A stretch of DNA of 38,076 bases from a virus (lineage: Duplodnaviria; Heunggongvirae; Uroviricota; Caudoviricetes), in the IMG/VR virus record IMGVR_UViG_2690316068_000004, positions 1 to 38,076 of that record. One strand, written 5' to 3'. The translations under genes and the position numbers were made by a program. The notes under the pieces were generated by a model. It had not been told where the DNA came from. It searched no databases and worked only from the letters and a program-made list of their open reading frames with translations. Shown piece after piece: positions 20,374 to 28,854 of this stretch. Position 1 is the first letter of the stretch, and each line of letters begins with the position of its first letter.

Positions 20374-24054
<3,681 letters not shown>

Positions 24055-24080
<26 letters not shown>

Positions 24081-24600
24081 TCAGCAACCCCGGTATCAGT
24101 TCATCCAGCGCGGCTGCTTTGTTCATGGCTTTGATGATATCCCGTTTCAGGAAATCAACATGTCGGTTTTCCAGTTCCGGAAAACGCCGCTGTACCGAGA
24201 GAGGGATCCCGTCAAGAATACTGGCAATTTCACCTGCGATCCGTGACAGCACGAAAGTACAGAATGCGGTTTCCACCACTTCTGCGGAGTCTCTGGCATT
24301 CTTCAGCTCCTGGGCGTCAGCCTGCGCACGCGTAAGTCGATGGCGTTCGTACTCAATAGTCCCAGGCTGGAGATCTGCCTCGCTGGCAGCCCTGTAATCC
24401 TCAACCTCTTTACGGAGTTTTTCATTTTCGATATCAGCTTCCCTCTGCGCATACCACTGAATTGCCATGGCGGTATCAAATACAGATTCAACGCCCTTAC
24501 CACCTCCGGAGACGCAAGGGAGTCCCTGAGACTGCCAGCGTTCAATCGTTCGCGGATCCACGTTGAAAATTTCGGCAAGTTTCTTTTTATTAACCTTCAT
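24055..24600 (-). CDS. nu1: Terminase small subunit Nu1, N-terminal DNA-binding region divergent from lambda
   Basis: 181 aa; residues ~50-181 match lambda Nu1 as recalled, residues 1-50 differ. Confidence 0.9.
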
Positions 24601-24787
24601 GAAACAGTCTCACAATAAATACAGGGTCCGACATGAAAGTGCCCGAAAATGACTTTTTTAGGCGTTTTCATGTCGGACCTTTACGGATTCGATATTAGAA
24701 AAAACAAATAGTTATGTTCGAGAAGTACCGACATGATTTTCCCCGGAAAATTTTCATAAATAGCGAAAACCCGCGAGGTCGCCGCCC
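24601..24787 (-). promoter_or_regulatory. cos site: cosN cohesive end (aggtcgccgccc at 24776..24787, i.e. GGGCGGCGACCT on minus) and cosB with three CCGACATGA-type repeats
   Basis: Minus-strand GGGCGGCGACCTCGCGGGTTTTCGCTATTTATGAAAATTTTCCGG matches the lambda left end; repeats at 24627..24640, 24667..24679 (inverted) and 24726..24736. Confidence 0.8.
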
Positions 24788-24935
24788 CGTAACCTCTTGG
24801 ATCGACGGAAAGGACCCGAAAACGAGAATAATTATCACTTACAGCAAGAATCGAATCTGATCTATTATGGTGCTTGCTATTACGTGCCGGCACAAGTGCG
24901 TCGTTTACCGTCATTTCACACAGAGGCATCATCAA

Positions 24936-25550: not shown

Positions 25551-25880
25551 TCAAGGACGTGACGGCGTAAAGATAAATTGTCTCTTCACTCCCTGACAGG
25601 GGCGATTCTTTTCAAATCGCCATTTCGCCATGGCCTTCACCACTTCATCACGAAACAAATTATGAGGCTCTGAGCGGAGAAAAACGATCCGTGTCACAGT
25701 CCCATCAGCACCAATATCGAACTTAACCTCAACCAGCCCCTTGATATAATTTGCTGCAGCATATTCCGGATATCGTGGATACACCGTCACTAATTGCCGG
25801 GGCTCATCAGCTTTTTGCTGCGAGCATCCCACTGCCAGGACAGATAACAGAAAAAGTAGTAAAAGGCGTCTTTTCATTTT
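25551..25880 (-). CDS. Putative lipoprotein with TonB C-terminal-like domain
   Basis: Internal start MKRRLLLLFLLSVLAVGC (lipobox LAVGC) followed by a YP...G.V.V.F.I...G.V TonB-C-like pattern. Confidence 0.55.
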   Translation of the reverse strand, partial: KMKRRLLLLFLLSVLAVGCSQQKADEPRQLVTVYPRYPEYAAANYIKGLVEVKFDIGADGTVTRIVFLRSEPHNLFRDEVVKAMAKWRFEKNRPCQGVKRQFIFTPSRP

Positions 25881-26358
25881 TATTCCTACGGGTCTTATTC
25901 TGACAATATATCCTGTGTTCCAGACTGCCACATCACCACATCCTGTGCCATTATCTGACTCACATTACATACATCGCATCGGGATACAGTAGTAGCACTT
26001 TCTGTAATACAGCTTCCTGTTTCTTCCACCATCGCACCGGGATAAACCCGCGAATCATTAACGCGGTAAAAACCCGGTGTGCATCGTTTTTAATTATTCC
26101 CGCACACTCACGCAGAAGGAATTCCCCCGTCGGGCTACGGTCATGGTTAATGCGGGAATACGGCGACGATACAGCGCAGCTAAAAGGGTAATGGACGGAT
26201 AGACCGGTTTATTTCATTCCACAGGATTCTGAGTGTCCCCAACTTCCTCCAATAGTCTGAGCCCACCTGTGTAGTTTTAATTTTCATCAATCCATTTAAC
26301 TATCGTTTAATTGTTGTCACATAGGATTCTGCCGTTTTTAACAATGCAGGATAATAAG

Positions 26359-26652
26359 ATGAAAAAAATGTTGTTTTCTGCCGCTCTGGCAATGCTTATT
26401 ACAGGATGTGCTCAACAGACGTTTACTGTTGGAAACAAACCTACAGCAGTAACACCAAAGGAAACCATCACCCATCATTTCTTCGTTTCGGGAATTGGGC
26501 AGAAGAAAACTGTCGATGCAGCAAAAATTTGTGGTGGTGCAGAAAATGTTGTTAAAACAGAAACCCAGCAAACATTCGTAAATGGATTGCTCGGTTTTAT
26601 TACTTTAGGCATTTATACTCCGCTGGAAGCGCGTGTGTATTGCTCACAATAA
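26359..26652 (+). CDS. bor: Bor lipoprotein (serum-resistance moron)
   Basis: MKKMLFSAALAMLITGCAQQTFTV... matches lambda Bor; opposite strand to the lysis genes as in lambda. Confidence 0.9.
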   Translation: MKKMLFSAALAMLITGCAQQTFTVGNKPTAVTPKETITHHFFVSGIGQKKTVDAAKICGGAENVVKTETQQTFVNGLLGFITLGIYTPLEARVYCSQ

Positions 26653-26683: not shown

Positions 26684-27145
26684 CTATCTGCACTGCTCAT
26701 TAATATACTTCTGGGTTCCTTCCAGTTGTTTTTGCATAGTGATCAGCCTCTCTCTGAGGGTGAAATAATCCCGTTCAGCGGTGTCTGCCAGTCGGGGGGA
26801 GGCTGCATTATCCACGCCGGAGGCGGTGGTGGCTTCACGCACTGACTGACAGACTGCTTTGATGTGCAACCGACGACGACCAGCGGCAACATCATCACGT
26901 AGAGCATCATTTTCAGCTTTCGCATCAGCTAACTCCTTCGTGTATTTTGCATCGAGCGCAGCAACATCACGCTGACGCATCTGCATGTCAGTAATTGCCG
27001 CGTTCGCCAGCTTCAGTTCTCTGGCATTTTTGTCGCGCTGGGCTTTGTAGGTAATGGCGTTATCACGATAATGATTAACAGCCCATGACATGCAGACGAT
27101 GATGCAGATGAGCAGAGCGGAGATAATCGCGGCTACTCTTCTCAC
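26684..27145 (-). CDS. Rz: Inner-membrane spanin Rz, GTG start
   Basis: (V)[44 protein letters not shown]... matches lambda Rz; GTG at 27143..27145 preceded by GGGGGA. Confidence 0.85.
26743..26925 (-). CDS. Rz1: Outer-membrane lipoprotein spanin Rz1, embedded in Rz in the +1 frame
   Basis: 60 aa [24 protein letters not shown]...[15 protein letters not shown], lipobox and proline-rich as in lambda Rz1. Confidence 0.85.
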
Positions 27146-27676
27146 TGATCTATCCCCCAACAGGCTAAATGCGCTTTCCTGGTCACGACGAATAACCTGT
27201 CCGTAGCAGTTATTTGAACGTGTGCGGCAATCACGCCCACCGTCCTTAATCCACCAGCGAATCGACTCACAGGCACCTTTACGATCACCGGCATTAAGCC
27301 GCTTATAAAACGTCGACGGGAAACACTTACCGGGGCCAATGTTATAGGGACAAAATGACGCGATACCTGCTTTTTGTGGCTCGGTCAGTGGAACTTTTAT
27401 ATTACGCTCCACCCATGCCAGCGCCTTATCCCGCTCAATGGCGTTAACCTGGGCGCATTTTTCCTTCGACAGTTTCATGCCCGGAATAACAGGTTTACCC
27501 TCCACCACAGTGGCACCCCGGCAAATGGTCCATATGCCGGAACCATCGCGGTATGCCGTTGTGTGGTTACCCTCTTTTTCGTCCAGAAACTGGTCAAGTA
27601 TCTGAGGAGCAGACGCGCCTGCGGCAATCAGCGCCAGAACAGCAGCCGACAGGCCGTATCTGATTTTTACGTTCAT
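27142..27676 (-). pseudogene. R: Phage lysozyme (GH24-type, signal-anchor N-terminus), apparently frameshifted near the 3' end so the ORF reads through into Rz
   Basis: The 330-aa ORF is lysozyme (aa 1-177) plus Rz (aa 178-330) with no stop; the expected C-terminus ...ACWGIDQ and TGA at 27142..27144 lie in the +1 frame; the span is 535 nt, one more than 178 codons. Confidence 0.7.
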
Positions 27677-28698: not shown

Positions 28699-28774
28699 TG
28701 GTGCTGGTTAACGGACTTGAACCGCCACCCATTCGCTTACAAGGCGACTGCTCTACCATTGGAGCTAAACCAGC
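28699..28774 (-). tRNA. tRNA, predicted anticodon UGU (Thr) from hand folding
   Basis: 76 nt folding as a cloverleaf with GCTC/GAGC D-stem, anticodon loop CTTGTAA, T-loop TTCAAGT, encoded CCA; C at position 14 and a G.A pair at the top of the anticodon stem. Confidence 0.6.
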
Positions 28775-28779
28775 ATGTT

Positions 28780-28854
28780 TGGCGGGACAGCGTGGACTCG
28801 AACCACGATAAGAAGGTTAACAGCCTTCCGTAATGACCTTTATACGACTGACCC
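28780..28854 (-). tRNA. tRNA-Asn (anticodon GUU)
   Basis: 75 nt with anticodon arm GAAGG-CTGTTAA-CCTTC, T-arm CGTGG-TTCGAGT-CCACG, encoded CCA; one T.T mismatch in the acceptor stem. Confidence 0.65.

Follow-up and report, generated by a model that had tools for sequence, protein, structure and literature searches.

A lambda-like prophage cos site that probably carries the packaging-specificity cassette of phage 21

The window analysed here (the whole stretch of DNA, 38,076 nucleotides) very likely contains, at a probability of roughly 0.85 judged from sequence comparison, the cos site of a lambda-like prophage with the packaging-specificity cassette of phage 21, the rest of the small terminase (Nu1/TerS) and the large terminase (gpA/TerL) being of lambda type. 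The arrangement is well studied and common, it is not a new specificity, and it corresponds in nature to the lambda-21 hybrids built in the laboratory. A sequence-only reading of this DNA had proposed a swap of packaging specificity that keeps the nicking site, and the proposal is supported by R boxes and a recognition helix that are, as far as their sequences tell, both of phage 21 type. The coordinates given in that reading hold with small corrections; that the arrangement is known and common was absent from it.

The window was read on the minus strand, along which the phage genes run, and the cos stretch occupies 24860..24598 (features given in descending coordinates are on this strand). 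A complete lambda-family cos site (cosQ-cosN-cosB) is present there, followed by the small terminase gene. Along the strand the order is cosQ/R4, the right-end sequence, the cohesive end, an A/T-rich I2-like site, three boxes and the ATG of Nu1, and all cos subsites are intact with canonical spacing. Curated phage 21 annotations of R4, cosN, I2, R3, I1, R2 and R1 (M81255 and the complete genome OL657228) were transferred onto the window through a four-way alignment. The R4/cosQ box CGGGTCCTTTCC (24818..24807) is identical at 12/12 positions to lambda and to the annotated phage 21 R4, and includes the cosQ heptamer GGGTCCT (24817..24811), about 24-30 bp upstream of the left nick; cosQ is required for packaging termination (PMC9026076). 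The 12-nt cohesive end of cosN, GGGCGGCGACCT (24787..24776), is the same in lambda and phage 21, as are its flanks in the alignment, and it sits within a wider terminase-nicking region of about 24804..24758, whose extent follows the M81255 annotation 150-196. On its right-end side the sequence reads ...GGTTACG, as in lambda. The description of cosN as lambda-like thus stands, and the left end is identical to lambda over bp 1-46. Within this part, bp 13-46 are lambda-type at the four sites that distinguish lambda from phage 21, and in this the window differs from phage 21; on the right-end side of cos (about 24858..24804), the identity to phage 21 is about 98-100%. The I2 site, an IHF-like site TATGAAAATTTTCCG (24758..24744), is the positional homologue of the annotated phage 21 I2 and matches lambda at 15/15 and phage 21 at 13/15 positions.

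Three R boxes with the common core TCATGTCGG follow, of which R3 and R1 are direct and R2 is inverted. R3 (AATCATGTCGGTACTT, 24738..24723, bp 50-65 from the left end) matches phage 21 R3 at 15/16 and lambda R3 at 10/16 positions, and is the predicted main binding site of the small terminase. Its distance to cosN equals that in lambda and phage 21, with no indel between cosN and R3, a spacing that was reported to be critical (PMC4669245, PMC9026076). R2 (AAGGTCCGACATGAAA, 24681..24666, bp 107-122), inverted with respect to R3 and R1, matches phage 21 at 16/16 and lambda at 9/16 positions, and R1 (TTTCATGTCGGACCCT, 24638..24623, bp 150-165) matches them at 14/16 and about 9/16. The positions of the three boxes correspond to the OL657228 annotations (R3 50-65, I1 74-86, R2 107-122, R1 150-166).

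The sequence-only reading had described three copies of a core in cosB, two direct and one inverted, and this was confirmed by counting. Exact copies of the 9-mer CCGACATGA were found at 24628-24636 (+), 24668-24676 (-) and 24728-24736 (+), all inside 109 bp, and nowhere else in the 38-kb window (three observed, 0.41 expected by chance in the whole window; at least three copies in 0/100 shuffles). The only near-match inside Nu1, at 24158-24166, has one mismatch. The repeats exceed the 9-nt core: TTTCATGTCGGACC is common to R2 and R1, and these two boxes lie within an inverted repeat with 25-nt arms that are 84% complementary.

Alignment with the lambda and phage 21 cos regions, which the same reading had named as its check, assigned the boxes to phage 21 (14-16/16, against 9-10/16 for lambda). 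The box sequence itself is CGTTTCC in lambda and CATGTCGG in the window, and the core of phage 21, C(A/G)TGTCGG, is shared by the window together with the R-box distances and orientations, the same cosQ and cosN, and the place of I1. The discrimination between lambda and 21 is set by R3 bp 56 and 59 and by TerS residues 20 and 24 (PMC4669245); bp 56 and 59 are G and G in the window and in phage 21, and T and C in lambda. The window cosB is about 87% identical to that of phage 21 at the DNA level, and the differences include an A at R3 bp 54, where phage 21 has G, and two changed flank positions in R1. In a megablast search with the cos-Nu1 region, the first 70% of the query matched phage 21 (M81255) and the last 62% matched lambda-type phages. 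A standard lambda cosB that has undergone ordinary drift would account for cosQ, cosN, I2 and bp 1-46, which are identical or nearly identical to lambda. However, the low match of the R boxes to lambda, a recognition helix that shares only 5/8 residues with lambda, and a megablast alignment to lambda that is interrupted across cosB and the 5' part of Nu1 make this explanation negligible, and the alignment refutes it.

Between R3 and R2, a putative IHF site (I1) was placed at 24716..24702 (bp 72-86), which matches phage 21 at 13/15 and lambda at 12/15 positions. On the plus strand it reads AAACAAATAGTTA at 24702-24714, with one mismatch to the consensus WATCAANNNNTTR, and its placement is homologous to the annotated phage 21 I1 (bp 74-86, OL657228). 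Matches to the IHF consensus were not enriched across the window (20 found, 28.8 expected), so the case for I1 is one of positional homology.

The 27-bp spacer between R2 and R1 (24665..24639), which lies within the inverted repeat with the 25-nt arms, corresponds to the phage 21 spacer read as its reverse complement. When inverted, it matches phage 21 at 23/27 positions, which is the level of its flanks, and when aligned directly at only 16/27 (59%), which indicates that the segment between the inverted R2 and R1 was flipped relative to phage 21, presumably via recombination between the R boxes. Because the spacer is partly palindromic (16/27), the flip alters little. The flipped form was found in every window-type locus, including phage IdasGreatGrand and the IMG/VR loci L155, L157 and L209, and the opposite form in every 21-type locus. 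The flip is a minor new detail.

The small terminase gene (24600..24055, 181 aa; Pfam Phage_Nu1, E = 7e-91) has two parts of different affinity. Codons 1-68 (24600..24397) encode a winged helix-turn-helix DNA-binding domain of phage 21 type, identified by Phage_Nu1 and by a match to PDB 7LWR. This structure, phage 21 gp1 residues 1-54, was the best solved match to TerS (E = 6e-30); over residues 1-54 the identity is 49/54 to phage 21 and 30/54 to lambda, and residues 1-68 share 41/68 with lambda. The recognition helix (residues 17-24, RTIERWQS) agrees with phage 21 at 8/8 residues, whereas lambda has RTIQNWQE, and the discriminating residues are E20 and S24 as in phage 21, where lambda has Q and E. 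Five residues of the domain are changed relative to phage 21 (7, 30, 32, 34 and 37), three of which fall in the wing (31-39) that contacts the minor groove (SGGGKGVES in the window, SKGSKGIES in phage 21). Codons 73-181 and the stop codon (24384..24055) encode the oligomerisation and TerL-binding part, which was assigned to the lambda type by its identity to lambda (residues 73-181: 107/109 lambda, 54/109 phage 21). The N-terminus of Nu1 had been said to differ from lambda and the remainder to match it, and these values agree.

The boundary between the two parts is also seen in the DNA. From 24880 to 24410 the sequence is 90-100% identical to phage 21, the R2-R1 region excepted, and from 24385 to 22000 it is 96-100% identical to lambda. 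The run of informative sites and the sliding identity place the crossover zone at 24409..24385 (codons 64-72), where the sites change from 21-type to lambda-type. The crossover falls within the conserved DIENEKLR... linker, just past the DNA-binding domain (1J9I corresponds to residues 1-68). By its sequence, the TerS gene is a natural recombinant of a 21-type DNA-binding domain and a lambda-type C-terminal part.

The large terminase gene (24080..22155), whose start overlaps the end of Nu1, has the GpA_ATPase and GpA_nuclease Pfam domains and 96-100% DNA identity to lambda. Over its first 80 residues, TerL is 93% identical to lambda and 57% to phage 21. What the window shares with lambda (PDB 1J9I, 6HN7) comprises the architecture of cos with cosQ, cosN and I2, the C-terminal two thirds of Nu1, and gpA with the lambda-like DNA after it. 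A short patch of TerL (residues 8-21; 24020-24080, minus strand) is unlike both lambda and phage 21 and is common to IdasGreatGrand; the region of this patch was reported to dock the small subunit. Assignment to the phage 21 terminase as a whole (gp1 and gp2) was rejected: TerS residues 73-181 and TerL are of lambda type (50% and about 57% identical to phage 21), so the element was not filed as a phage 21 terminase. An N15-type simple cosB, which has a single R3, an inverted rR2 inside terS and no I1, R2 or R1, was likewise rejected, the window having three boxes and I1 upstream of terS. The lambda-like cosQ and cosN beside a divergent cosB are also found in phage-inducible chromosomal islands (PICIs), which redirect the helper terminase through Rpp (PMC9026076, PMC6739421). 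But in those islands no R-box repeats occur and the place of terS is taken by rpp (139-154 aa), whereas the window has three R boxes, a 181-aa Phage_Nu1 protein, TerL and then more lambda-like DNA; a PICI origin of the cos site, which can be given next to no weight, is refuted by this gene content.

Identities, positions, spacing, the mosaic boundary and prevalence were observed directly, and from them we infer DNA binding, IHF bending and the actual packaging specificity. According to the lambda and phage 21 literature (PMC9026076, PMC4669245), dimers of the 21-type DNA-binding domain would bind the CATGTCGG boxes, and IHF would bend the DNA at I1, turning R3 and R2 towards a single dimer. 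The lambda-type C-terminal domain of TerS would then bring the lambda-type TerL to the adjoining cosN, where TerL would nick with a 12-bp stagger, and cosQ would serve in termination. Such a mechanism is supported by lambda-21 hybrids of the same domain layout, which are viable and 21-specific.

The very same domain layout has been described for a viable lambda-21 hybrid (PMC9026076, PMC4669245). Like the window, the hybrids combine cosB-21 and a 21-type N-terminal part of TerS with a lambda-type C-terminal part and lambda TerL. In the hybrid hy51, which has a chimeric TerS (Frackman, Siegele and Feiss 1985, cited in PMC4669245 and PMC9026076), the replaced part of the left end amounts to about 600 bp, while the crossover in the window lies about 380-400 bp from the left end (codons 64-72). 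The window arrangement differs from the hybrids further in being natural and widespread, and in that its donor was a diverged allele of the 21 cassette and not phage 21 itself. Within the literature collection searched, neither a paper on a natural lambda/21 chimeric TerS nor one on PDB 7LWR was found. The difference in specificity between lambda and 21 and the modularity of TerS have been established since the 1980s, and little new biology is added here. Lambda-21 hybrids have been used for decades in the Feiss laboratory.

The differences between the window cassette and that of phage 21 could be taken to mark a third sub-specificity, co-evolved and akin to that of phage 21 without being exchangeable for it, in which changes in the wing and in the R-box flanks block cross-packaging. 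The changed wing, the A for G at R3 bp 54, the two flank changes in R1 and the flipped R2-R1 spacer are consistent with this, and the cosB variant was strictly linked with the TerS variant in every locus examined. However, sites separated by less than 400 bp would be strictly linked in any case, phage 21 has the same recognition helix (8/8) and R2 (16/16), and at every genetically defined discriminating position (bp 56 and 59, residues 20 and 24) the window agrees with 21 (PMC4669245). We therefore regard it as decidedly unlikely that the window-type cassette, with its R3 core CATGTCGG, flipped spacer and lambda-like GGGKG wing on a 21-type helix, no longer cross-packages with phage 21. If it were so, the cassette would represent a natural intermediate, and new cosB/TerS specificities might arise via wing and flank changes and inversion between R2 and R1.

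The preferred reading, a phage 21 cassette in a lambda-like prophage, agrees with the distribution of the same arrangement in other genomes. The isolated phage IdasGreatGrand (PP925829) encodes the same TerS protein without a single change, and over the 819 bp matched its cos-Nu1 region shows 99.4% identity. The same chimera was found in E. coli Q5, in O157-type strains and in IMG/VR contigs. Compared with the window, IdasGreatGrand and the prophages of E. coli Q5, O157-type strains and others have a chimeric TerS that is identical or one residue off and a flipped-spacer cosB; they differ in one more A between I1 and R2 in most copies, in an intact TerL, and in flanking right-end sequences unlike those of the window. 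Among 5426 complete E. coli genomes, 540 matched the window cos+Nu1 query over at least 80% of its length, and 631 and 3915 matched the phage 21 and lambda queries, respectively, by the same measure. Since the pure types cover only 62-70% of the window query, the 540 genomes were read as carrying chimeras. Genome and viral contigs were also scanned with the cosB-21 pattern TGTCGGN{40,60}CCGACATGA, which was too loose: the genome-contig matches it listed look chance-like, in unrelated taxa, and a cosQ-anchored check of the fetched loci retained a true cos only among the viral contigs L139, L155, L157, L185 and L209.

When natural variants are compared, the recognition helix varies in step with the R-box core, and the C-terminal type of TerS assorts independently of them, which fits a cassette of cosB plus DNA-binding domain that recombines at the conserved linker. 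The helix RTIERWQS occurs in the window with the core CATGTCGG and a lambda-type C-terminal part, and in phage 21 with the core C(G/A)TGTCGG and a 21-type C-terminal part. E. coli SA53-3 (L253, NZ_CP076279) has the helix RTIERWQT, the core CGTGTCGG and a third C-terminal type. PhiR5_1 has RTIDRWQT, the core CATGTCAG and a C-terminal part that is neither 21 nor lambda (about 60-63/98 to each), and E. coli MCJCHV-1 (L254, NZ_CP030111, 1185-1933) has RTITAWQS, the core CAGATCC and a 21-type C-terminal part (85/98). The window is in this way a clean natural illustration of cosB and the TerS DNA-binding domain moving as one cassette, whose recombination at the linker past the domain would retarget a lambda-type motor to 21-type DNA. 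E. coli entries named "terminase small subunit" conceal recognition and motor-docking modules in three or more combinations, and these combinations bear on which prophages, satellites and cosmids cross-package in a given strain. In SA53-3, the 21-like boxes and helix are accompanied by a different cohesive end, GGGCGGTAGACG.

The closest relative of the window is the E. coli Q5 prophage, with 99.95% identity over 7.7 kb and four differing positions. At 22409 the window has T and Q5 has C, which creates an amber codon at 22409..22407 (TAG for CAG, TerL codon 558) and removes the last 84 residues of TerL; the Q5 prophage encodes an intact TerL of 641 aa. An extra T at 27167, in a T run near the 3' end of the endolysin gene, shifts the last endolysin codons into the Rz frame and produces a fused endolysin-Rz spanin ORF of 330 aa (27676..26684; +1 frameshift relative to Q5). 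The window also has an extra C at 26794 relative to Q5, whose Rz is annotated as frameshifted there, and a G/T difference at 21125, beside the end of the shared stretch. Given the amber codon, the prophage may be unable to use its own cos, and as sequenced it may not self-package unless the amber is suppressed or a helper terminase is supplied.

These lesions, together with a Q5 prophage that is itself truncated within the portal gene, could mean that the window holds a relic, a decaying prophage whose cos is no longer used for packaging in this genome. This is unlikely, for the cos subsites and their spacing are preserved in this copy, and its intact TerS has the same sequence as the TerS of a plaque-forming phage. 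Both lesions are single-base changes relative to Q5 and hence recent, or possibly sequencing errors, and packaging of this cos by a helper phage with 21 specificity would still be possible. Moreover, decay of one copy would leave the identity of the element as a phage 21-type cassette in a lambda-like cos unchanged.

An ORF of 84 aa (24935..24681) runs across cosQ, cosN and R3. Its only PHROG match, to a family with no assigned function, is confined to the part where conserved cosQ-cosN DNA is translated, and the ORF is most likely not a real gene, although some phage records list comparable ORFs as hypothetical proteins. A scan for promoters and terminators around cos found no more than chance would give, as would be expected where the late transcript reads through. 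The Rfam scan of the window detected only two tRNAs, away from cos. The two tRNA genes lie at 28774..28702 and 28854..28783, upstream of the lysis genes, and the corresponding region of E. coli Q5 is annotated with tRNA-Asn and tRNA-Thr. Between the lysis genes and cos there are a gene for a TonB-family or Rz-like PHROG protein (25551-25931, minus strand) and a Bor/Iss-type lipoprotein gene (26311-26652, plus strand), both typical lambdoid moron genes.
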